Assembly: GCF_000002075.1 (NCBI RefSeq)
Contig: NW_004798155.1
Coordinates: 124,290 to 188,289 of the forward strand
Source of the DNA: Aplysia californica
Lineage: Eukaryota
Reading direction: 5' to 3'
Length of the DNA: 64,000 nucleotides
A program made the position numbers and the translations under genes. This document shows, piece by piece, positions 13,501 through 30,300 of this stretch (position 1 is the first letter of the stretch; every line of letters begins with the position of its first letter). A model generated the notes under the pieces. That model was not told where the DNA came from. It saw nothing but the letters and a program-made list of their open reading frames with translations, and made no database searches.

Positions 13501-14436
13501 GTCCGTTCCAACTTCCGACCCATGTTCCTAAATATTTCCAGCCTTATATGAAAATTGTTTCGATTTTAGTGTGGTAACAATCGAGATGTGAGCTTTGGTG
13601 AATTAATTTTGAATTTGCTTGAGTGGCAGCTGAAGCTTTCTTTACTATCGATTTTAGGACCACCAAGGGATCTTTGAGGTGCACAGCTTGCACACTCAAC
13701 CTTCGGGATTTTTTTCACCGTTATCCAAGAGGGCTAGGTGTTTGATTTTATCTACCCCTAAGATCAGGGGTGTGGCTGAAAAACAGCAGTAAGAAGAGCC
13801 AGGATTAATAGTAGATAGAGTCAAGAGCCCAGAAGGTGGAGAAGAAGAAAGCAGAGTGATGAACATGACTACTACCACTACTAGAGAGCAGAACTGGAGG
13901 TGACATTAATTTAACCCTTTCTCTACCTCACCAATAAGAGATTGATGAAAGCAATATATATATACCATTGACTAAGTAAAATGTTCCGAAAAAGAGAGCA
14001 ATGTACCTAGGATGAACAATGTAAGTCTTGGCATTTTTTGTTTTGTTTTGTTCCATTTTTATTATGATGATTCATGGGCCGAAATCTTTTAAAGACTCGC
14101 AGACCCAAGGCATTACAATACAATGCACGCACTTTACCGGGGGGCTCTGAATATTTATATAAATATATATTTTTTAATTCGAACTTGAAGTGCCAAACCT
14201 GTTACGACTAAATTTCTCTCTGATAGTTGATAGCTCTAGCCAAACAAGATTCGGAAAATGACCTTACGATTTCTTGTGTTCAAATCTAGTCTCTCTTTTT
14301 TATTTTATCTCATCTCGTCTTCCCCTTTCTAAGTCTAATGTCCATCTCCCTTTATATCAACTTTACGCTTCTTTTGTATCTGTTGACATTTTTTTGTTGT
14401 AAATTGCAGAGAAACGGGTGTTTCATCTGTCCAAGA

Positions 14437-14492
14437 ATGGATGCTGAGGAAGTTTATGTGTACAATCCTTTCCAAGGAATTGAGATTGGAAG
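14437..14492 (+). CDS. CENPC: CENP-C coding exon 1
   Basis: MDAEEVYVYNPFQGIEIGR; gtgag donor; upstream acceptor at 14408-14409. Confidence 0.82.
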
Positions 14493-15309
14493 GTGAGTCG
14501 ATCTATTCAGTTCATCTAGCTCAAACACAAACGTTTCTAGTGTACAACATTTATTTCACTGAGGACTGACTTTAGATAACTTGGGGATGGGGGCAGCTTT
14601 TAAGATTGATGATTTTGGGTCAAATAGTGGGTGGTACCTGGGTTGTTCATGTCTGAACCTGAAAGGAGCTTTGAGAATGTTTGAAGAACGCTTGATAATT
14701 TATCTTTCAAAACAGTCGGGTAGTGCAGAAACTATAATCAGTTATTAGCTATGATATGTGTAGTTTGGGGTTGGGTTGTTTTTTTCAAACCATTCTGACA
14801 GTAAATATTCATCTTGGTCGTATTTGATTTTATTTCTTTTTTCTCAAATGTTGTTATTATTTTAATACAGTGAGTAATACATGTGGAACAATTCTCTTAA
14901 GCTGCTGGTCCTCTATTCTTTTTAACTATTAAACTCCTTTTTTGAAGCTTCAGAATGCAACACGACATGTTAAATCTTAGTGTTAGTAAAAGTTCCTCCT
15001 TCTGCAACTTGTGAAATGTCTTTTGCATATTTCCCAGGAGAACGGGTATTTCAATTCACAAAGTCAAAAATGTGAAAAATGGCATGGACAACATAGATGA
15101 TTACTTCACAGACTCTGGTAATAATATAGAATTTTATTATTTTGTTAATAATAGTGTTTGTAGAGCCTTATTTAACTCCAGCGTATCATCAGTTTGCTGT
15201 GAATGTGTGTAACATGCTGAGTTTCTGTTCTCAAATGTTAATAATTGCTTTTTTTGTCCTAGTAATGAAACGGTGCTGCATTTAAGAGAATATCTCCTGC
15301 TGACCTCTT

Positions 15310-15364
<55 letters not shown>

Positions 15365-18300
15365 TTCTCTCTCTCTCAGTGTGGATTGGGTTATATAATT
15401 TTGTGTGGGAGCAAGTTCTGTTAACACAGAATGTTTCAAATGTAGACACTTAAAAGTTATACTGAAATCTTTTCCCATCAGTTATATTAAAGCTCTCTTT
15501 TAGTGTTCTGTCAAGTCTGTTTCTTTTTGTCATTAAAAAAATTTCAAGCAAAGAATATAGTGTGATGTTAAAGTTGAAATTTTTTTTTGAAATTTAGAGG
15601 GGTGGGGTTTCTTTTCCTTAAAAAAAAAAAAATCTAAGTTTGCTATTTTCTTTTGTAATTTTCAAGTTTGCGAGTATTTTCTTTTTATTATGCCAAGGTG
15701 GTATTATCAAAATAAGTATTTTAATATCCTTTGTCATTGCAATGTTTACATCTCTAATACTTATGATAACTTTTTTAATGAACTGTACCCACAACTTTAA
15801 AAAAAAAACTTCTGGAATCCCAGAGGCGGACCAGACTCTTGACGTGACCCAACAAGTGCCCCTGACCTCAGTGGAGAACACCAAAGTGTCGCCGCACAAA
15901 AATGTCAAGGATGTTGTCTTGGCGCCAGCTCAAACTGGAACTACCAAGCGAGGCGGTGCGGTCAAAAATGTTAAGCAGCCGACAACGGCAAGAAAAAGTG
16001 AAGGGGCACCGTCCAAGGTTTGTTTTGGTGCGGGCTTGCCAACTGTCCCGAATTTCCTCTGGGAATTTGAGAGAAGTTTTGTGTATAGTTGCGTAATCTG
16101 ATATGTCATGACACTGGGTATTCCTGGCTTGGTTTTCCAAAAGTTTGCAAGCCTTTGAATACTTTGATGCATGTTTTAGCGTTTGAGTAAAGAGAAGCAC
16201 ATTGCGGGGGGGGGGGGGGGGGGTTACTTTACGCTTACCCGCATCAAGATGCCAGTGATCATATTTTATTAGTGTATGTTTTAACAAACTTAGTTGAGGA
16301 GGGCTACTGAAAGGTCGTTCTTCTTCCCTGACCTGATGTAAATATCTGTCTTCCCCAAAGCCCTGTTATATTGCAATCATGTTAAAAAATAATCTTTAGC
16401 TTTTCAGCAGAAAAAAAGCAACCCTTTTTCTCCTGTGTTTTCCAGAGCCCAGCTATGGAGGTGCCAGTGAATCCTTTCGACTGGAATCCTAGAGTTGGAA
16501 GGTCAGTTGGGAACTATAGATTAGAGGCCTCTGGGTCTCTTATTGCCAGCATGACGTGGGTAGTAGAGCAGTTGTTCAGTAGTGCTGTACGGTACTCATT
16601 ATCTTTATTTTACAACTCGTGAGTGCTCGATGCCAAGCTTGCTACTACTTGAGTGCTCTCTGTTCAAGCCAAAGGATGCTACTAGCTGCTCTGTTTCCAC
16701 TCATCCCACCACCCCAACCCCATCTTCTACACTGCACTGCCGCAGAAAGGCACTCGACACACTGACGTAAATGTCAAAAAAAGAGGGGGGGGGGGTCCCG
16801 CTATGAAAGCGGCAGGCTTGCTCTGCAGAATTTCTCTCAAAGACAGGAGATGAAGACTGCTGAAAACACTGCGATGAAGCACTGATGGTGCGATGCTGCT
16901 CAAGCAGCTCTGTTTCAATCGATGACAATGCTATTTGAGCTAGGTGCCACTCACGAGTAACAAATACTTGAACGTGATATTTTGTTTGGTTGTTTTTTTT
17001 TCTTACCTATTTATAAATTTTGTCTGGGTTGTTGTTTTTTTCCATTATCCCTTCATAGTTTGTTTCATTTCCTTTTCTCAAGAATGCCAAGCAATGTTAG
17101 TGGCATCAAATTGGATGTGCCCTTGAGAAAAACACTGACCTTTGCTGGAAAACAGGCTCTTTTAGAAATTTGTTCCTATTTTTTTAAAAATTTGTTTGTT
17201 TCCTTTAGCATGAACAGAGTTTTTCTTTGCAGTATGAATGTGTATAGTTGGTGCCGTTAAAAAATTAATTGTCGAAAAGAAAAATATGTTGTGTTTATTT
17301 CTTGTTTTCTTTCTTTCCTTCGGTGTGTGCAGGAGAACAGGCCGAGATCTTCTGGCCGGCAAAAACGTCAGTAGGGTGGAAAACTTCAGCCAACTTCAAT
17401 CAGATAATGGTATGTTGAAACCAAACATTGTAGCAGCAATGTTACCTCACAACAGCAATGTTACTTCACAGCAGTAGAAAAGTTAATCATGCTCAGATTA
17501 ATTTCTCCTATAGATTCTAGATACAATGAGCTATTAACTTTGATGTATTTTTGGTATTTAGTTCGGTGGTCACTGGGGTGTGTCTGAGCAAAACACGATA
17601 AACCTTTTTCAAAAAACAGGGTGCTGCACATTGGCAACCAGCAGTGGCATGTTTGTAGTATTTCTGTATGTTTGAATATGTATACATGTATTTATGTACT
17701 GTCTTTATGTAGGTATGGTATATCATCATATGTTAAGCCATTGTAATTTAAAATGTCCCCACAGGTATCAATAAAAGAGGAATATTATATTCAAAAATTT
17801 ATTTTTAAGTTTTGTGAAAAATTTGTTTTAAAAAACTTAAGCAGATGGGTGACAGGTACAGACCAGGATAGCACAGGTTTTTTATGAGCATCTGAGCAGA
17901 GAAATGAGAGACGAACCAGCTGATTAAATTGAATCTGTATGAACTCCCCAACTATTAGATATCAGCAGTTTGTTTCCTCTCATTTGTTTCCAACCAGAGT
18001 CCACCATGTCCCCACAACTTACGCCCGAGACGTCGTCTATCAAGAATTCTTTGGTAAGTCTAGTGTGGGATCTAAGAGATCATCGCTTTCTACACAACAG
18101 CATATTAACTTTTTTCTACGGCCTTTTGTAATGATCCCAAAGCTCTTTCTGTGCCAGATTTTTTTTTTGAAGATTCGGTTTGTTTGATGCTCTTTGTATT
18201 TGCTTTGTTTTGTTTTATGACTGCTGTGTGTGTGGGTGGTTGTTGGGGGCTCTGTTGTTTCAGCTTCTTTTTTCCTATGAAACATCTATCGTCCTTATCT

Positions 18301-21300
18301 CTCCTTCTTTTCTTCGTATATTACTCTCCAGTAACACCCCTAATCTTCGGCACTTGTGTGACCTATTTGTGTTGCAAGTGCTGTAAAACTCTTACTAAAA
18401 ATCGAAACTACCTTAGTTGTTGTGAAAAGAAGTAAATTTTTGTTACATTTCTATACACCGTTTTTATTTTTTAAATGTATGCTATTAGATAGTCTTGAAA
18501 TGTTGGGGGGGGGGGGGGGGGGTGTCATTTAATACAAAAATATACTTTGGCTTTCAAGGACAACACAGTTCAAAATACATTCAACCATGGCCACATGGCC
18601 ACCTGTATAAGGCAATTACCTGTACAGACTCCCATTTACCTCCATTTTCCCAATTAAATGTTTTTTGGGTTTTTTTACATTGTAGTGACACTGTAAGACA
18701 ACCACTTGTTTAAAACGGCCACTTTTCTCCTCGACAGTGTGTGACCATCTCAGACAACTTTGACTGAGTTTATATTTCTCTATGTGTCGTAACTCCCCAG
18801 CGCTCTGGCTCACCTGGAGAAACAAATCAACCAAACGCGTCTACCCTGCACAATTCTGGTTCTGTCCATCATTCTGATAGTCTCTCAAGCAAAGTACACA
18901 GACGAATGGAAGAAAGGGCGAGCAGCAACTCTGGAAAAACATCCAGCGCAAAGAAAAAAGTCTTAGACTCGGGCAGTGGAGAGTTAGCGTCCAGTGGCTC
19001 TGACACTGAAACAAGAAAGGAAGTTAAAGCGACGACAGGAAGACGAAAATCAATGCGAAAGAATCATGCATTACCTGCATCTCATGACGACGAGGAAGGA
19101 AAAAGTAGTCCAGCCGATAGTCAGGAGGATAAAGATCAAGGTAGTCATGTGGACCGGCGAAGATCAGTGCGAAAGAATCAAGCATTGTCTGTATCTCATG
19201 ACGACGAGGAAGGAAAAAGTAGTGCCACTGATAGTCAAGAAGATACAGATCAAGGAAGTCATGTGGACAGAAGAAGATCAAGGCGAAAGAATCAAGCATT
19301 GTCTGTATCTCATGACGACGAGGAAGGAAAAAGTAGTGCCACTGATAGTCAAGGAGATACAGATCAAGGAAGTCATGTGGACAGAAAAAGATCAAGGCGA
19401 AAGAATCAAGTGTCGCCCGTCTCCCATGATGATCAAGGGGGGAAAAATAGTCCCCACGTTGATCAAGATCCAAATCAGGGTGGAGGTCATGGTGGAAAAC
19501 TCGACAGCTCCAGGAAACAGTCAAAAATCACAAATGATGTTGGTCAGAAGAGAACAGAACTCGACAAAAGGCCCCACAGTGAGCACCTTGGAACTGAGCA
19601 GACGGAGGATTTGAATTTATCTCGAAAGGGGACTTTGAGAAAAGGTTTGAAAAAGCTTCAAGAAAAAAGTCCCAGTGAGGAAAGAAAGACAGGTAGTTCC
19701 AGTGACAGCTCGGAGAAGCTGAGTAAATCGGCGAATGTTTCCCTCAAACAACTGAAAGAGTCAAGTGGCCGAGACAGTTCTGCATGCGGTGCAGATCCTC
19801 CTTTGGAACAGGCTGTAGCCGAGCTGAGTAAAAATTTGAATAAATCCCAAAACGAGGGTGTAAGAAAGAGCTTAAAGAAAGTGAAAATAATCGCTGCTGG
19901 TGACAATGTTGAGACAATTCTCCATCTTAGTCGCATCAAACCCAGTCCTCAGAAGAGGACTGGAAATAATTCTGACCGAGACGACGACACAGAGCACGGG
20001 GCAACAGCAAGCGCAGAAACAGAACCACCAGAGTCGAAGGATGGAAGTACATCCGGTGATTCTTCGACATTGTTTAAAAGGCCGCCGTCTTCAGGCGGGG
20101 AAGAATCTGAAGGATTGACCGAGAATGGTGGGAAGACAAAGTCATCAAGAGGTGCTTCCAAGGTACGGGGTTTGAATACAAGTTCAAAGGTGAACGTCTC
20201 TCTGAAGTCTAAGCCTTCTGCTGTAGGGGAGTCTGAGGTGGTGATGAAGCGAGAAAAGTCTGTGCAGTCAGCCTCCCAAAGTGGCAGAAAGACAGATGGA
20301 AGTGGAAAAGATCAGATGTCCAGTAGGGAAGATGGAAGCACAGCTGTGTCACAGGTAAACAAGTCTGAGAGATTTTGTTTGTCTGTTTTTGTGTATTTAT
20401 TATTTTGTGTGTTTGTGAGGGGTTGTTTATTAGTGGCAATTTTTTTGAAATCCTGATTGGATTGGCATAAAATCAATTCTTTTTAAAGATTGAATTCTAT
20501 TTTCATCAGTTGTACAGGACTATTTGTAAACGAACTGACAGTACACAGTTTTATTTGCAACATTTGTGTGACTTAATTTTAAATGACATCTCAGACGGGG
20601 CATTCTTGTACTCGGATCGTTTGTGGAGTTTTCAAAACTCTCAACCCATTTGGCTTGGTCCTGTCAGAGACGGGTGTTAAATTCAGAAGTCCCACCTCTT
20701 AGATAAATTAATAGTGTTGATTTGGGCATCAAACTCATACATTTATACACTCATTGCTGTCAGCCAGTACATACAAGTTATGTTTAATATGTTTTTGAGG
20801 ATCTGAGTACAGAATTGTGTGTTTTTGCAATGCTTTTTCTTTGTTTTATAGCATTGCTCTTCACAGATTCACCACTGGTCTTTCAATACCGAATTTGCTA
20901 ATAATAATGAAGCCCATTATAAGTCAATAGGGTTTGTGTCAATACATAACTGGAGATCTTTATTAAACATGTATCACTTCGTTTGCTGCTTTGAATAACT
21001 TGAATTTATTGATTGCAGAAAAGTGTGTTTGTGGAGGGTTTGGAATTTGGGCCACTTGGCCAATGCACGCCATCTTGGCCTGCCGCACAGGTAGAGTCGG
21101 TTTTGTGGTTTTGAAAAGTTGGCAGCTATCCGCTATTATGTAAATGACCATTATCGTGTTGACATGCTTCTCTGACCTCAAACATAAACTAGTAAGTGTG
21201 GGTGGATGGCAGGTGCTCTGGTGTGGTTTACTCCTTCTGCCCTATAAAAAGTCTATCGTCTCTGTCTCCCCTCCTTTTTTTTGTGTTTGTTACTTCCTTG

Positions 21301-24300
21301 TTACACCTTCGGCATTTATATGACCTTATTCTGTTGCAAGTGCCGTAAAACTCTTACTGAAACTAAACTAGTAAGTTTTGTTCCTTTCTGCTTTCTCTCC
21401 TCTGCAGGAGATCTCAGGTCTGGGTGGGAGTCTTTTGTCTCGTCCAGGCAGGAGTCTTTTGGACAAGTCTAAGGACACGACCACAACAGCCACGCTCAAC
21501 TTTGGCGGTGATGTGACCGGCTCTGTCACCAATGCCGAAAAGGCTTCTGCCAGTCACTTCTTTGGGATTAAAAAGAGGTATGCTGGAAGTATCATCATCA
21601 GCATTATCATCATCATCATCATTGTTGAAAAAGCAGAGTAGAAATCTTGATTGATTTTGAGTCAGGAAGTATAGGTAACAAAATTTTAAAATATTTATTA
21701 AAATGGCTCAACTTAGCAATGCTATCATCATCAACATCATCATCAAATACCAGACATCTTAAAGCTTGTTCGTTTGTCTTGCTTTCAATGAAAAATAATA
21801 ACCGGAATAGTGGGTGGTTGGCGGGTGCTCTGGTGTGGTTTGCTTCTTCTTTCCTATCAAACATCTATCGTCTTTATCTCTTTTTCTTTTTTATGTTTGT
21901 TACTCTCTTGTAACACCTCTAATCTTCTGGTGCTCATATGACCTTATGCAGTTGCGAGCGCCGTAAAACCTCTACTAAAACAATATCTTGAATAGAAGTC
22001 CTGATATTTTATTTAGTGCTGAAGGAGGTGCAGGTTGCCTGGTTTCAGAGGTGAAAGGTAGCAAGAAAATGGCCACCAAAGTTTAGTGATTTTCAAAGCT
22101 CAAGTGTCCTTGGAAATTGCAAATTAAAATTTTTTAAACTTTTGATCGACGTCTTTAACCACCCAGTTTCTTTCGATTTTCCCCAAAATGTCTTTGCCTT
22201 TGATGGCGAGGGTTTTTACTATAATAATATAGTGTAAAGGGCATAGAGCTTGCTGTCGAGTGGGGTTATGCGCTATACAAATGCTATTTATTATTATTAT
22301 TATTATTACTATATGAGCCTTGTGATGGCAAAGTGTTCAGTAAAATCCTCACAGAAATGTGTTGTTAAATAGGTATAAAAGATGTTGAGCCTAAAAAAGG
22401 AAATTCGAAGAAAAAATGTCCACTGGCCAGAAAAATGCCTGGTCTTTTTATAAATTCATTATTTTGACAAGCGCTGGATTTCACCACGATGACTCATATT
22501 TATATTTATTTTTTTATGTATGGCATTGATGTTTGACCACAATATGGATGTCTTTCTCAGGCTGTCATACTCTGTCGCTATAGCAGACGCCAGTAAAAAC
22601 AAGACAGACAGATCACAGAATGACATAGAGAAAAAGAAATCTGCCATCCCAGTCAGGTAAGTATTTAGAATGTTCTCAGTTTTTATTTGTTCTAGTACAA
22701 TCAGTTTTCCACTAAAGGAACAATATTTAATTAGCACGAATAAAAATATTTTTGTCCTCATTGAATTAAATTCATAAAATGATTTTTTCTATCTGTCTGT
22801 CTTCCTGATCCAGTTTCCTCAATGAGCCTCTGTGTTACTGTCTTCTCACATGAAACAAGTCTGGGGCCAGCTGATCGGATGTACTCAAATAAACATTTTG
22901 ACATTTTAATTTTCTGTTTCTTTATATGTGGTATCGGTTGCATGTGCTCAAGAAATATTTTGTTAAAATCTATATTCTAATTGTCGAAAGACTCAGAAAA
23001 AAATTCATAATATAGGTATAATTGTCAAGAGAATTAACTAGCTTGGTTTTTTTCCCCCCTCTCCTGTAAAATTTTTCTTTGGACATAAAGGAATGACTCC
23101 ACGCTGCAGTCAGTTATAGTTACTGAGATTTCCTTTGTTTCCAGACTTTAGGGACAACCTATGCATTCATCTAGTCTATCACATTTGTACAGGCCTCTTT
23201 CGTGTAGTGGTCAGGCGCTTAGCTGTCGCACGCAGGAGACCTGAGTTCAATTGCCGTGTAAAGAGAGTTTTATTGAGTATCTTGGTCTTTCTGCTGGGAT
23301 GTTGTATCCCTCTCAGCCCGGGTTAGCCCTGACCGGCAGGGTCAGAAGCCCGCCTCATAAATGGGGTAAATTGTGTCAATTGAGGAAGGGGGGGGGGGGG
23401 GGGGGTAAAGCACCATTTTATTTTTTACTTTAAGACTTGAGATACATCCTGTATATTCCAGAATTCTTTAACTTTTGTCCTTCCAACCCCAACAGGACCA
23501 GGGCCAATCTGTCCCAGAGCCAGCAAGACAAAACTCTCCTGTCTACCTTCGAGAGTTTCACCTTTGTTGACGTGGGAGGTCAAGACAACTTTGTCATTGT
23601 CGAGGCTGGTGATGAAGAAGAAAGAAATGACGCTACAGAAAGGTCAAAGACGAAAGAGACGAGGAAACGTAAATCCTCGTCAAATACGCTGGATCAAGGG
23701 GCGTCTTCACCATCTCCTCCAAAGTTGAGCAAGACAGATCTTTTGGCTTTGGGCTACAGCGCAGAGAAAATCGCAACCCTGGCAGCAGACGAGGAATCTG
23801 CCAAGGGCAAGAGGAAAGGAAAAGGAAAGGCTGTTCAAACTAGAAGTGCTGCCAAGAATGATGGACAGAAAGAGAAAGATATGGTGGTAATCAGTGCCGG
23901 CCAGGACTCCGAAAGTGTGCGGTCCGAGCCAAACACGGACATATCACCCAAAAGGTCTGGCGGGAGAGCAAAACTGAAAGATAAGAAACCGTCACAAACC
24001 AAGCCGTCACAGACTGACAGGAAATCCTCAGAAAGCAGTGATGAATCTGCGGAACTTCCTGCTGATCTGGACACGAGAAAAAAGGCAACTAAAAGATCAA
24101 GCAGAAAAAGGAAACAAGAAGCTGAAGAAAATGTGCCTTCTACTCGTGCTGCTTCAAAGCGAGAGAAAGACAGTCGTGAAGTATCTGAGGTCACGTTATC
24201 GTCGTCTAAGATGTTGACTCTCTCGCGGACGGTCACGTCAAAAGACATCAGTTCTAGAGGGAGAGTGAGAAAAAAAGCAGCATCCAAAGAATATCCATTT

Positions 24301-27300
24301 TCTAAAACTTCTGGACCATCAAAGGAGGAAGAGACAGATGATGAAATTATTCTTGGTGGTTTCAAAAAGGGCTCTGGGTTGGAAAAAGAAAATTCTATCA
24401 AGAGGAAAAGGGTTCAAAGTCAGCCCAAGTTAACAAGAGCAGTTTCTAAAAGCAAAAAGGTTAGGCAGTCAAAACGAAGACAAGCTGCCCCTTTGAATAA
24501 GCAGCTGAGAAAACGAAAGAGGAATGTGGACGCCAACACTTCTGCAGGTCCTGAAGAGCAAGAGTGTCTTCAAACAAATGTCGCAGGCGAAATTTCGGAG
24601 GTGTGTGAGGAAGCTGAAGTCAGTTTAGCAGAGGACGAGAAATCCCCGGTCAAACCTCCACAGTCAGACACCAAGTCTTGTGACCCCCCAGCTGAGGTGC
24701 AAGATGAAGAAAAAGTACCAGGAAATCCAACGACAGGTTCCCGCACGAGAACCAAATCTTCTACAACAAAAGAAGTAGAGGGTAGTCGCACTAAAGCAAA
24801 ACCTTCGACAAAGGAGTTGGGAGGTCGTAGCGCCAAAACAAAATCGTCTTCGACAAAGGAATTGGAGAGTAGTTGCAGCAGAAGCAAATCTTGTACAAAA
24901 AAAGAGTTGGAGAGACAAGTGGGAACCTCTGGTCCCAGAAGATCCCTTGCTGCAGTTTTGGAGGACAGTGTTTCTGCTTCTGATGATGGAGACAAAGAGA
25001 AGGAAGTGGAGGAGGAAAATGCTCAGGACCTCGCAGGCGAAGGCGCTGAGTCGACCGAAGGGGAAGCAGAGCGCCTGCTGGGAGTGTCCGAAACCAAACC
25101 CGAGAAGTCGAAGAGACTTTCAACGTCAAAAAGAGGGAAGAAAGAGAAAGAAGTTACAGACCAGCCCAGAAAGAGTTTGTCTCGGAAACCTCGACATTCA
25201 CAGAAACATGGTGAGGTTTCTCACAGATTTTTTCTTCCCTCAGCTTTTTCTGTTTCAGACACAGTCAGTGGGTGGTTGGCAGGTTCTCTGGTGTGGTTTG
25301 CTCCTTCTTTCCTATAAAATATTAATCATCCTAATCTCTCTTCCTTCTTTTCTTTGCGTGCTCTAGTAACACCTCTAGTGTTTGACGCTTATCTGACCTA
25401 TTTGTGTTGCGAATGCTGTAAAACTTTTTCTAATACTAAAATCACTGTTTTAATCAGTCGTTGGTGTACACCTGTCTCTGTTTTCAGCAGTGTCTATGTT
25501 CATCTACTAAAACGTGTAAGATCATAATTTGTTATAATATTGTTTAAATCGGTTTACAGACTTGTGTATTTGGGTTTTTTTATTCGTATCAGTTTTTGTT
25601 TTCTTCTTCTGCACCTGGCGTGCAGTGCAGGAGGCTAGAGGGCGCCACTAATAGACTAATAGATCCTACCTCTTTTCTTCCCTTCTGTTGTTTCTGTCCA
25701 TGTTGTATTTTTCCTTGGACTGAGAGGGTTCTATTGACTCAGTGAGTCAACGTAGGTAGTTCAGTGAAAATGTCAATGTGCTTGTTCTCTTTACTCAAAC
25801 TCAAACAATGTTTAGTGAACCCAGGTTGTGGGTGGTTGGTGGGTGCTCTGGTGTGGTTTACTTCTTCTTTGCTTTCAAACATCTATAGTCATGATCTCCC
25901 CCTCCTTCTTTTTTGTGTTTGTTACTCTCTTGTAACACCTCTAATCTTCGGCACTTATATGGCCTTATTGATTGTGTTGCAAGTGCCGTAAAACACTTAC
26001 TAAACGGGTGCTCATATGACCTTATGCAGTTGCGATCACTGTAAGACTCTTACTAAAACAAACAAACACTTACTAAAACAAAAAGAACCAAGGATAAGAT
26101 TCAATTGAAATGTTTAGTTCCAGCTTCAGCGACGCCGCAGCGAGTGAACTTGTTGCTGTCATTGCCCTCGGTGACCCCACAGAGCGGTCCGTCTTTCCGG
26201 CTGTCGCGCAGATTTTCCCCGCAGTTGTCCTCGCCGGATCTGGATTCCTCCCCGGAAAGTCCGAGTCCTCGAGGTGAGTTTATAATACGGGTGGTTGGTG
26301 GCTGCTCTGGTGTGGCTTGCTCCTTCTTTCCTGTCAAACATCTATCGTCCTTTTCTCTCTTCCTTTTTTTATGTTTGTTACTCTCTTGTAACACCTCTAA
26401 TCTTCAGCACTCACATGACCTTATTGTGTAACACATTTTGTTGTTGTTGTTGAAATGGTTAAATCTGATATCATATTCAAATTCGTGGTTAAATTTTGAG
26501 AAATTACAAAAATAGACCTGCTGTGCGACCTCAATGTGCTGAAACAAAGAAGGCACACAACAAACACAATGTGGAATGAATTTGATGATCCCAGTCGGCT
26601 ACCATTTGTTAAATGGATGGATGGATGCGGATTTTTTATCTGAATGCGCCTCTACAGCACCAGGCTATTATAATTATCCCTCACTTCCCTGTGGCCCAGG
26701 TAATACTGGAGTCCTTGACTCCTCAGGCTCGGCCAACACTGAATGTGTCTGTAATTTTTGGCTGACATTAAACCATAACTTCCAACCAGTAAGTAAAGAA
26801 CATGCAGATGCTGAAGGACAATTATGACCTTTCAAGAACAGACTTGAGAATTATATTGAGAACGAAGCTCTTGAGTCAATTGGAGAGGTCTTTTACTTTT
26901 ACCGCAGTTCCACTTTGAATTGCTTGAATTTACTGAATGTAGAAAAGTGTGTTGAGGGTTTGAAGGAAGAGGAGGGGGGGGGGGGGGGGTCAACTGGCCA
27001 ATGCCCACCATCTTGACCCACCTTAAGGGAGGAATCTGTGTTTTGGTCTTGTAAAGTTGTCATCTACGCCTTGTACTTTTCCAGTGGAGACTCCAGGCCC
27101 CCTGGCCAGGAACACAAAGATGGCTATTCCGGCAGTGGACGCCACCCCCCAGGCCCCTGCCTCGTGTCTGCGTGGGAACAACCCACACAAGAGATCGCTG
27201 AAGGGGAGGAAAGTGCGCATCAGCAACATCATCGACCGACTGGAGGTCTCCCAGAATGAAAGCAATNNNNNNNNNNNNNNNNNNNNNNNNNNNNNNNNNN

Positions 27301-30300
27301 NNNNNNNNNNNNNNNNNNNNNNNNNNNNNNNNNNNNNNNNNNNNNNNNNNNNNNNNNNNNNNNNNNNNNNNNNNNNNNNNNNNNNNNNNNNNNNNNNNNN
27401 NNNNNNNNNNNNNNNNNNNNNNNNNNNNNNNNNNNNNNNNNNNNNNNNNNNCCCTCTTCCTCAGATCGGCTTCTTATTCTTGTGTTTTTTGGGTTTTTTT
27501 GTTTTGTTTGTTTTTTTGAGGGGGGATACATTATAACGACTAATGACACTGTAAAATTTCCACCTATCTAAGACAACTTCTTTACCCCTCAACAATGAAT
27601 GACCATCGTAACAATCTCAACTATATGTAATTTTTCATGACATTCCTCATGTTCTGTTCTCCAGGCGAGCTTTCTTCCGATGGACGGAGCTCCACGATGT
27701 TGCCCTCACCAACGTCCTCCCCGGTCCACTACGCCGAGACCACCCACCACTACCCCAGCCCGAAAGACTTCCTTGTACCAGACCTCTCGAACAAAATCAG
27801 TAAGACTTAACTCTTTGTCGTCATCATCATCGTCGTCATCACCATCACAGACCAAAAAACTCCTGTTTTTCTTGAAGCATTACAATTTGTACCATGTTGG
27901 CACGATTTTACATAACTTACAAATATCAGCACCAAAATCAGGACTCAGGACCAATAACTCATCACAGCCAAGGTTCTTTAGCTCTTATCAGCCAGAATTT
28001 ATGTCATAGATTTACCTGAACAGCCAGAATTCGATTTCTGGCCATTATCACTATTTGTTAATTACAAGGAGTAATTCATTTTGTCCGCACGCCTCATATT
28101 TAATTTGGTCGGTTCCTTTTTACATTTACTTGTTTTGTTGCTTTTTTAGCTTGTGTCAAATGTTTAAACCCATACCCTGCTGTACCAGCATCTGTGGTGT
28201 AGTGGTTAGACACTTTGTCATAGTGCAAAGATCTAAGTTCCATTCCTGGAAGGGGAGAATTTTTATTGAGTTTCTCAGTCTTTCTCCTGGGACATTGTAT
28301 CCCTCTCAGCCCAAGTTGGCCTTGACAGGCAGAGTGTTGATGGGGACATAAAATCACCTACATTTAAAAAAAAAATTTATTTTGATTTTGGATACTGCCA
28401 TAGTATCACTGTGGGTACTGAGAGAATGCTCACATACACAGGGGTTGGGAGAGAGTTATCCTGAAGGTTCTTGGTGTCACTTCTTTACTCACTGAGACAA
28501 TGAGCACCTGTTCCCACACTGGCACCGCTGAAAGCATAGTAGTTTTGTTTTTTCTTTTTTCACTTTCAAACAAATGTGTAGAAGCTCCAAATAATGATTT
28601 GTGTTCCTTATTATCTAAATAAACATGAACCAAAAAAACCACGACTCTAATGGCAACCAATACTTTTTTACTGTGATGATGAAATGAAGACATGATACAA
28701 GATCTGTGGGTGGTTGGCGGGTGCTCTGGTGTGGTTTGCTTCTTCTTTCCTATGAAACATCTATTGTCCTTATCTCCCCTTCTTCTTTTTAGTGTTCGTT
28801 ACTCTCTTGTAACACCTCTAATCTTCTGGCGCTCATATTACCTTATGCTGTTGCGAGCGCCGTAAAACTTCTACTAAAACAGACAAATACAAGATCTTTT
28901 CTTTTTTTTCTGTCTTTCTTTTCTTTCTTTCATTTTTCTTGTGATTGGAGGATGCCCCTGGTTGATACTACTTCCTTAACTTTTTTTTTTCTCTCATTTC
29001 TCTTGTGGTTGAAGGATGCCTCTGGTTCATCCTGCTCCTTTTATTTTCTTTCTGTTATTTCTATCCGCCTGTCTTGCTCTTTGTCAAGGCTAAATGGCTG
29101 TTATTGTGTCAATGTGCTGCTCTTTAAATACACAAAATTTACTCAAAAGTGTTCACATTTCATAATCAGAGCCAGGAAATAATTTTCTTTTTTTTTTTTT
29201 TTTTTTTTTTCAAATCTTCTTTTCAGTTCGACCTGGCAGCGAAAATGATGACGGACTTCGTCGGTCTCATAGAACGAGAGTGAGGCGCCTCAGCGCTCAC
29301 AAGGGGGAGGGAATAATCTACAGGCGAGACAGTACAGGTAAATCCAGTGTTATTAGTCGTAGGGAAGTGTTTGAGAAATGTTTGCAGGCTTGCCAACTGT
29401 CCTGAATTTCCGGGGACTGTTCCGGATTTGGCAATCAAAAATTTGAGAGGACATTGTATACACTTAGCCAAAACTAGTCCCATAGGATGTAAATTCGTTT
29501 TTTTGTTGCGCTGTCTGATGTTATAATGTTAGGGGTCACTAACTGGGGTTTTGTTAAAGTTGGCAGGCCTGAGGCCTGCGTTTATGTTATATTTAATAGA
29601 GCTCTTGTTAAGGGAATTCACAGGGGTGCGTCCTCGAGCAAGACACAATAATCCTTGCACAGGAACAGGCGGCTGTACAGCGGCGTCCACCAATTGCGTG
29701 TTTGTAAAATGACGATGTAGGTTGGATATTGTGGGTTATGTAGCTTAGAGGAAGAAATATTGTGTGCAAGTATCCAAATTTCTCACGCGGATAAATATGT
29801 GGTATTTATTTATTTATTATCTTTATTAATTATTTAGTTAGTTTTTTTTGTCCTCAAGTTATCAAGAAAAGTAGTATTGTTTATTTTATTATCTTTATTG
29901 ATTTTTTTTCTACACATGTTCTCTGCTCAACAGGATTTGGAATGATGGTGGCCGGCATCCAGCCCTCCGTGGTGGAAGCGAAGGAGAGAGCCAGAGAAGA
30001 CAAGCGTAGGAAGCAGATCAAACAGCGAAAAAGTAAGTGGTGGTTTTGTCTTCTTGGTGGAAATTCGGCTTGATAACTCATCTTCTCCACCTTCTGTGGT
30101 GTAGCCTTGGAGCTTCGTCATCACTTACAGAAGACATGGGTTTGATTCCTGAGTGGCGAGGGGTTGTTGTTGGGGTTTTTTGGGGGGGTGTTTGGAGTTT
30201 CTCTGTTTGTCTGCTGGGACGCTGTATCCCTCTCAGCTTGGTTTGGCCCTGATAGGCAGAGCTGTTAAAGTACTTTTTAAAAAGTACTTAAGTGCAAATT

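Follow-up and report, generated by a model that had tools for sequence, protein, structure and literature searches.

Introduction

Can a single chain of the inner-kinetochore protein CENP-C dock more than one Mis12 complex? The question is raised by a gene on the forward strand of a 64,000-nucleotide stretch of the Aplysia californica genome (RefSeq assembly GCF_000002075.1, contig NW_004798155.1, positions 124,290 to 188,289), which is referred to here as the window and in whose numbering positions are given. A first-pass annotation, made from the sequence without database searches, had proposed that this gene encodes CENP-C and opens with a duplicated two-exon module resembling the N-terminus of yeast Mif2, so that one chain might carry two Mis12-docking sites, or might switch between a canonical and a divergent site by alternative starts or exon skipping. 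Here we describe the structure, splicing and distribution of this module. On balance we favour the view that exons 4-6 arose as a tandem, in-frame duplicate of exons 1-3 and that the second motif is probably a second Mis12 dock, predicted to be weak in Aplysia.

The Mis12-docking motif is described in published work as contacting the head of Mis12-Nnf1 with a basic R-K-T patch and with aromatic residues further on. Fission-yeast Cnp3(26-52) binds Mis12-Nnf1 at 12.6 µM, both subunits being needed, and binding depends on nine residues including R26, K27, T28, F43, E44, Y49 and F50 (PMC5740674). Aurora B phosphorylation of Cnp3 T28, within RKTG, raises the Kd to 92 µM, which makes binding about eightfold weaker. 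The binding mode and its regulation are treated in PMC5101189, 10.1101/2025.06.03.657598 and PMC7360964, and human CENP-C recruits one MIS12:NDC80, in a 1:1 ratio (PMC5241120). Of the yeast Mif2 N-terminal sequence quoted in the first-pass annotation, only the RKTG core is confirmed.

Exon structure and splicing

The two copies of the motif are encoded by exons 1 and 2 and by exons 4 and 5 (Table 1). The coding lengths proposed earlier hold exactly, at 56 and 80 nt for copy 1 (14437-14492 and 15038-15117) and 56 and 77 nt for copy 2 (16446-16501 and 17333-17409). Both introns cut an Arg codon in phase 2 with identical flanks, both second exons finish in phase 1, and the ATG of copy 2 at 16455 is in frame. 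The match of 56 nt between exons 1 and 4 is numerically right and sets the coding part of exon 1 against the whole of exon 4; exon 1, 83 nt long in full, has an acceptor at 14410 and is internal, and transcript contigs hold 148-167 extra letters 5' of it that have no match in 13860-14408. The peptides of the two copies align at a score of 45, a value reached by 1 of 20,000 shuffles.

The duplicated unit most likely comprises three exons (1-2-3 copied as 4-5-6) and forms a phase 0-0 module, because exons 3 and 6 both run from phase 1 to phase 0 and phase 0 is also the opening phase of exons 1 and 4. A three-exon unit fits the Mytilus protein, where motif and spacer recur as one. The reading frame is kept by skipping exons 4-6, 3-5 or 2-4, and is lost by skipping exons 4 and 5 alone.

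Splicing was assessed from the contigs of four sequencing runs (X2, X17, X19 and X9) placed on 13860-18120. None of these runs is recorded as RNA, and the GT..AG joints show that spliced sequence is present in all four. Exons 4 and 5 occur in spliced transcripts in line with exons 1-6, and one chain thus carries both motifs: a single contig in X2 and another in X19 span all six exons, and every joint between them recurs in at least two runs (Table 1). The contigs of the four runs hold no exon-skipping joint, which shows inclusion and not the absence of skipping, since contigs omit rare forms. The aligned contigs have no differing letters or gaps in exon 5, and its odd sequence is therefore real. 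Run X9 has no contig on exon 4, a hole that proves nothing, and the raw-read RNA runs X21-X23 have next to no depth on the exons and are uninformative on expression and splicing. In annotated models from four genera, all copies are retained in 15 of 15 isoforms. The region occupies one genomic place, as does exon 5; an assembly artefact as the source of the doubling was ruled out by this single place together with the matching spliced contigs.

Both second exons open with a tandem acceptor (CAG GAG, at 15035-15040 and 17330-17335), the distal AG of which would remove one Arg of the RRT core in frame. One X9 contig begins at 17334, as a distal-AG branch would, and a coverage gap explains this equally well.

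Gene identity

Between 14410 and 36698 on the + strand, the exons make up a single open frame with GT..AG introns, except for a masked stretch. A search with a single cupin exon gave a 100% match to protein P0002 (XP_012944614.1, 1,747 residues, Aplysia californica), which RefSeq names 'serine/arginine repetitive matrix protein 2'. We assign the gene to A. californica CENP-C, misnamed in RefSeq, because the Pfam CENP-C_C cupin (PF11699) scores above its cut-off on P0002 (38.8 bits, E 1.1e-9, cut-off 29) and a tree of the C-terminal part unites it, with support 100, with the proteins of Biomphalaria and Bulinus, the former being named centromere protein C. A CENP-C motif at residue 1522, ahead of the cupin, aligns with the motifs of the homologs. 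Its two aromatic residues are absent in Aplysia, Biomphalaria and Bulinus, and also in Argopecten; two are present in 66 of the 73 matched motifs. These two residues mark the canonical CENP-A-tail reader (PMC5371998), and their absence counts against that status, not against CENP-C orthology. The CENP-A tail of Aplysia, Biomphalaria and Bulinus may have changed in step with the CENP-C motif.

Motif membership and conservation of the two copies

Both segments belong to the Mif2/Cnp3-type N-terminal motif family, as the first-pass annotation had supposed. A profile built from the first copies of 18 other species, with Aplysia excluded, was run on 134 proteins and gave 43.9 bits for copy 1 and 23.1 bits for copy 2 (E 3e-7, profile positions 3-32 only). 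The counts were confirmed with a second profile built from every copy; since the Aplysia copies and the first one of the chiton went into it, its scores for these are not independent. Copy 1 has the core R19 R20 T21 and the helix aromatics Y41 and F42. Copy 2 has the core R129 R130 T131, and the score of its basic half (21.1) lies within the family range. Lacking the helix aromatics, copy 2 is a homolog of the Mis12-docking motif and an incomplete member of the family.

The front of copy 2 is identical to that of Biomphalaria at 17 of 22 positions and to that of Bulinus at 14 of 22. The spacer is identical at 10 of 73 and 7 of 73 positions, respectively, and the stretch that follows the front at 5 of 31 in Biomphalaria. 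The excess in the front half over the spacer and the following stretch points to selection on it. When residues are matched by spacing, Cnp3 Y49 and F50 correspond to Y41 and F42 in copy 1 and to L150 and Q151 in copy 2; copy 1 should therefore be the main Mis12 dock in Aplysia and copy 2 a weak one.

In the DNA alignment, two small offsets enclose the helix codons of copy 2 (17385-17405), which match copy 1 out of frame. A speculative account of this is that the lost aromatics stem from a short compensated frameshift.

Distribution and history of the repeat

With the last 230 residues as query, 1.84 billion representatives yielded 134 hits, 82 of them of at least 600 residues; 20 of the hits were identified by name. 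At least two clear copies are present in 10 of the 13 named molluscs, Aplysia included, and the doubling is thus not peculiar to Aplysia. There are two copies in Aplysia, Biomphalaria, Bulinus, Haliotis, Gigantopelta, Argopecten, Saccostrea, Sinanodonta and Mactra, and three in Mytilus; two further two-copy proteins without a species name group with Mactra. Copies in molluscs are spaced 84-129 residues apart (110 in Aplysia). The second copy scores about as well as the first in the other molluscs (for example, first/second copy 81.9/82.6 bits in Gigantopelta, 75.1/69.4 in Haliotis and 30.4/35.4 in Biomphalaria). The long proteins P0009 and P0011 fall in the mollusc clade without a motif and may be cut models.

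Single copies occur in the echinoderms Diadema and Holothuria, the scorpion Centruroides and the nemertean Lineus. Nematostella (P0031) and the rust fungus Cronartium (P0075) have two N-terminal motifs about 60 residues apart, and these doublings are probably separate duplications.

In a motif tree of 32 copies and 53 columns, which is poorly resolved, Aplysia copy 2 groups with copy 2 of Biomphalaria and Bulinus (support 98/90), a placement that makes it orthologous to the planorbid copy 2. Like-with-like pairing is favoured in 44 of 66 species pairs, and same-species copies cluster in Sinanodonta, Gigantopelta, Mytilus (copies 2 and 3) and Nematostella. This pattern fits an old mollusc duplication followed by conversion or re-duplication. 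Searches for close N-terminal relatives returned P0002 alone or nothing, leaving no other sea hare for comparison; an Atlas search with residues 105-160 gave no usable hit, and Protein Data Bank (PDB) sequence searches with P0147 (a mid-protein fragment) and P0141 gave nothing relevant.

Function of the second copy

Our best reading of these sequences is that copy 2 represents an old, always-included second Mis12 dock that would have full strength in most molluscs and have lost some of it in Aplysia. Where a mollusc has two intact copies, spaced 84-129 residues apart, one Mis12 complex would bind to each copy, and the outer-kinetochore load per CENP-C chain would rise from one to two, or to three in Mytilus. 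In Aplysia, docking would fall mainly to copy 1, and copy 2 would be a site of low affinity, tunable by Aurora B and working at the high local concentration of the kinetochore. The proposal of two docking sites on one chain is accordingly better supported by the intact second copies of other molluscs than by the Aplysia gene, in which the helix of copy 2 is the most decayed of 38.

Several results weigh against this reading. The scan with the Pfam Mif2_N model (PF15624, cut-off 23.5 bits) that had been suggested earlier left both Aplysia copies below the cut-off: exon 2 alone reached 13.7 bits (E 0.1), and neither exon 5 alone nor the whole protein gave a match. The model likewise finds no match in 12 animal proteins (one lacking its N-terminus), P0141 and P0035, and misses animal motifs in general; in P0127, which does match it, our own profile recovered the N-terminal motif at 41.9 bits. 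Copy 2 has L150 and Q151 at the positions assigned to Cnp3 Y49 and F50, which are occupied by an aromatic and a hydrophobic residue in 37 of the 38 copies; this assignment is by spacing only. In leave-one-species-out scoring of the 38 copies (Liolophura and Cronartium left out), its helix scored 2.3 bits, the lowest value, the next being 17.5, and it is the sole copy without the two helix aromatics and the preceding acidic residue and has the shortest linker. Among the molluscs, the motif is single in Pinctada and missing from the Nucella model, and the second copy of the chiton Liolophura is weak (7.5 bits). The copy-1/copy-2 label needs 6 changes on the motif tree (10.7 in shuffles, 2 of 500 being as low) and 22 of the 66 species pairs favour crossed pairing, and a single origin is therefore not established. 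Compensation for a lost CENP-T was considered as a reason for the doubling and set aside: a CENP-T/CENP-S-type histone-fold exon is present in the genome (L003:1501-1605, - strand, G000:C27; 37.2 and 32.4 bits), so loss of the parallel CENP-T route is no evident reason for it.

An alternative that we regard as unlikely, while the strongest of those considered, is that Aplysia copy 2 has been kept as a half-site, its basic front adding avidity to a Mis12 complex held by copy 1, competing with the Dsn1 auto-inhibitory segment or binding another acidic partner, with copy 1 supplying the helix. The decay of the two copies is complementary: the helix survives in copy 1, whose mollusc-type middle is gone, and the middle survives in copy 2, whose helix aromatics are gone. 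Conservation is also as high in the front of copy 2 as in that of copy 1 (17/22 versus 10/14), and Dsn1 and Mif2 compete for one head surface (10.1101/2025.06.03.657598). However, planorbid copy 2 retains the aromatic helix, so that the front half is conserved there within a whole motif, and the distance between the two copies in Aplysia also tells against a shared site.

It is improbable that copy 2 is a decaying relic of the Aplysia lineage, functional in the mollusc ancestor and tolerated in a disordered region because the module keeps the frame. The loss of the helix aromatics, seen in no other copy, would agree with this, as would its longer end branch (0.88, versus 0.06 and 0.28 in the planorbid orthologs) and the existence of single-copy relatives such as Pinctada. 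Yet conservation is much higher in its front half than in the spacer sequence flanking it on both sides, and the splice sites of exons 4 and 5 are strong and used.

A switch, in which copy 2 serves as an alternative N-terminus through ATG 16455, exon skipping or translation of an exon 4-10 circle, has some footing in the good context of that in-frame ATG, in a back-splice to exon 4 in run X17, in contig depths in that run of 3.7 on exons 1-2 and 9.6 from exon 4 onward (a poor measure) and in a circle frame that would give a 1,253-residue protein with copy 2 and without the nucleosome motif or cupin, but it is improbable and lacks support, given that the contigs of the four runs, which omit rare forms, contain no skip joint, the isoform models keep every copy, skipping exons 4 and 5 is out of frame, a Met within 25 residues upstream of copy 2 is found in only 4 of 12 species and in neither planorbid ortholog, and mammalian circles mostly appear to be splicing errors (PMC8365531).

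Comparison with known systems

The closest known counterpart of the second dock that we favour is the Cnp3(26-52)/Mif2 motif (the start of PF15624; PDB 5T59 as cited in 10.1101/2025.06.03.657598). It shares with the mollusc copies the R-[RK]-T-G core, an Aurora B consensus, followed 13-17 residues later by an acidic-aromatic helix, and the N-terminal place in a cupin-bearing CENP-C. It differs in that one site per chain has been described, whereas molluscs have two or three putative ones, and in that Aplysia copy 2 lacks aromatics at the presumed Y49/F50 positions. Human CENP-C 1-71 with MIS12C (PDB 5LSK; PMC5101189) likewise places a basic cluster and an amphipathic helix on head 1 and is a functional counterpart by the structural alignment of that paper; vertebrate-type N-termini, in contrast, show no match with the mollusc-based profile, and the human stoichiometry is 1:1.

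Two other systems resemble the mollusc gene in architecture. The CENP-T N-terminus, with its two NDC80-binding motifs (PMC5241120), also repeats a short linear motif in a disordered inner-kinetochore tail and so multiplies outer-kinetochore complexes, but it is a different protein with a different partner and is activated by CDK1, while the mollusc repeat is of the Mis12-docking motif in CENP-C. In grass CENP-C, exon pairs 9-10 and 11-12 (PMC549713) form a small module that has been tandemly duplicated, triplicated and lost repeatedly across lineages; that module lies mid-protein and is thought to bind DNA, unlike the N-terminal outer-kinetochore motif of molluscs.

The openly available full-text articles searched yielded no report of a repeated Mis12-binding motif in CENP-C or of a mollusc CENP-C structure. 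A linker-evolution review (PMC9252888) and a Tetrahymena preprint (10.1101/2025.11.28.691167) describe no two-site CENP-C in their available portions. The repeat may already be visible in the ortholog alignments of comparative surveys of the kinetochore.

Back-splice from exon 10 to exon 4

In run X17 a contig with exons 4-7 opens with 22 letters, plus a shared G, identical to the 3' end of exon 10. The back-splice joint is exact (donor 25210, acceptor 16446) and, among the loose contig ends listed, was seen in one contig of one of the four runs. Introns 3 and 10 carry the arms of an inverted repeat of about 34 bases flanking exons 4-10, and intron 10 is the best partner of intron 3; because the introns hold dispersed repeats, the rank of this pair among the 153 intron pairs is a fairer measure than the shuffles (Table 1). 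A 3,724-base circular RNA of exons 4-10 is likely from these features; trans-splicing or a duplication allele would give the same junction. The computed circle frame from ATG 16455 reaches a stop 15 residues past the junction, and its translation is speculation.

Table 1. Features of the A. californica CENP-C gene, in window positions
Feature	Position	Strand	Description
Exon 1 (first coding)	14410-14492, ATG 14437	+	Front of motif copy 1; ends within the Arg codon of GRRTG; joint to exon 2 (14490-15036) in 4/4 runs
Exon 2	15038-15117	+	Rest of copy 1 with intact acidic-aromatic helix segment (P0002 residues 35-44); Pfam Mif2_N 13.7 bits, own profile 43.9 bits
Exon 3	15824-16017	+	Spacer of low conservation (phase 1 to 0); joints to exon 2 in 3/4 runs and to exon 4 in 2/4
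Exon 4	16446-16501	+	Front of motif copy 2, in-frame ATG 16455; back-splice acceptor; joint to exon 5 (16499-17331) in 3/4 runs
Exon 5	17333-17409	+	Rest of copy 2; basic part kept, 11-residue linker, Leu150/Gln151 replace the helix aromatics
Exon 6	17998-18053	+	Short spacer with the phases of exon 3 (1 to 0); joint to exon 5 (17408-17997) in 4/4 runs
Exon 10	23496-25210	+	Its donor (25210) forms the back-splice to exon 4 (one X17 contig)
Exon with CENP-C nucleosome-binding motif	29227-29337	+	Retains the basic half, lacks the aromatic pair
Last three exons	34373-34545, 36022-36112, 36591-36698 (34373-36698)	+	CENP-C cupin dimerisation domain and stop; Pfam CENP-C_C 38.8 bits
Intron 3 arm of inverted repeat flanking exons 4-10	16172-16204	.	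Score 41, second of 153 intron pairs, 0/2000 shuffles
Intron 10 arm of inverted repeat	25774-25807	.	Duplex energy -38.4 kcal/mol

Other features of the window and genome

Exon 7 contains a 114-base (38-residue) tandem repeat of about 3.5 copies (19041-19454), and RefSeq isoforms X1 and X2 differ by one unit; a looser 45-base repeat lies at 24750-24891. The last coding exon of a convergent downstream gene is found at 42405-42503 on the - strand. This piece resembles calcyphosin-like EF-hand proteins and has no Pfam match.

A Mis12-like exon is present in the Aplysia genome at L002:1408-1549 (G000:C844), with a Pfam Mis12 score below the cut-off (E 0.017) and the next exon apparently near L002:2015-2081; it is the first located exon of the likely Mis12 gene. 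Mis12, a gene split over short exons, was missed by the Pfam profile search of the genome and was located with a short motif. The same profile search found no match for Nnf1/PMF1 and, having missed Mis12, gives no evidence of its absence.

Significance

The doubling is real, expressed and conserved, and its interest lies in the multiplicity across molluscs, of which Aplysia is the weakest example. Kinetochore counting models assign one Mis12 complex to each CENP-C chain and place the multiplication of microtubule binders on CENP-T; if our interpretation is true, outer-kinetochore number could also be set in another manner, by a CENP-C that offers two or three docks throughout the phylum. A wider version of it, which we put forward tentatively and hold a little short of even, is that each mollusc chain docks two Mis12 complexes (three in mussels, and four to six per dimer), that the copy number of the three-exon module turns over by duplication and conversion, that the sea anemone and the rust fungus reached the same solution separately, and that Aplysia would be a natural half-site mutant with an exon 4-10 circle starting at the second dock. 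Most of these proteins are misnamed in databases and the Pfam model misses the animal motif, which may explain why the repeat has escaped notice. Should copy 2 of Aplysia prove unable to bind, the Aplysia case would be an ordinary exon duplication with decay. The natural series of genes with one, two and three copies, and with one copy decayed, lets the number and strength of docks be related.

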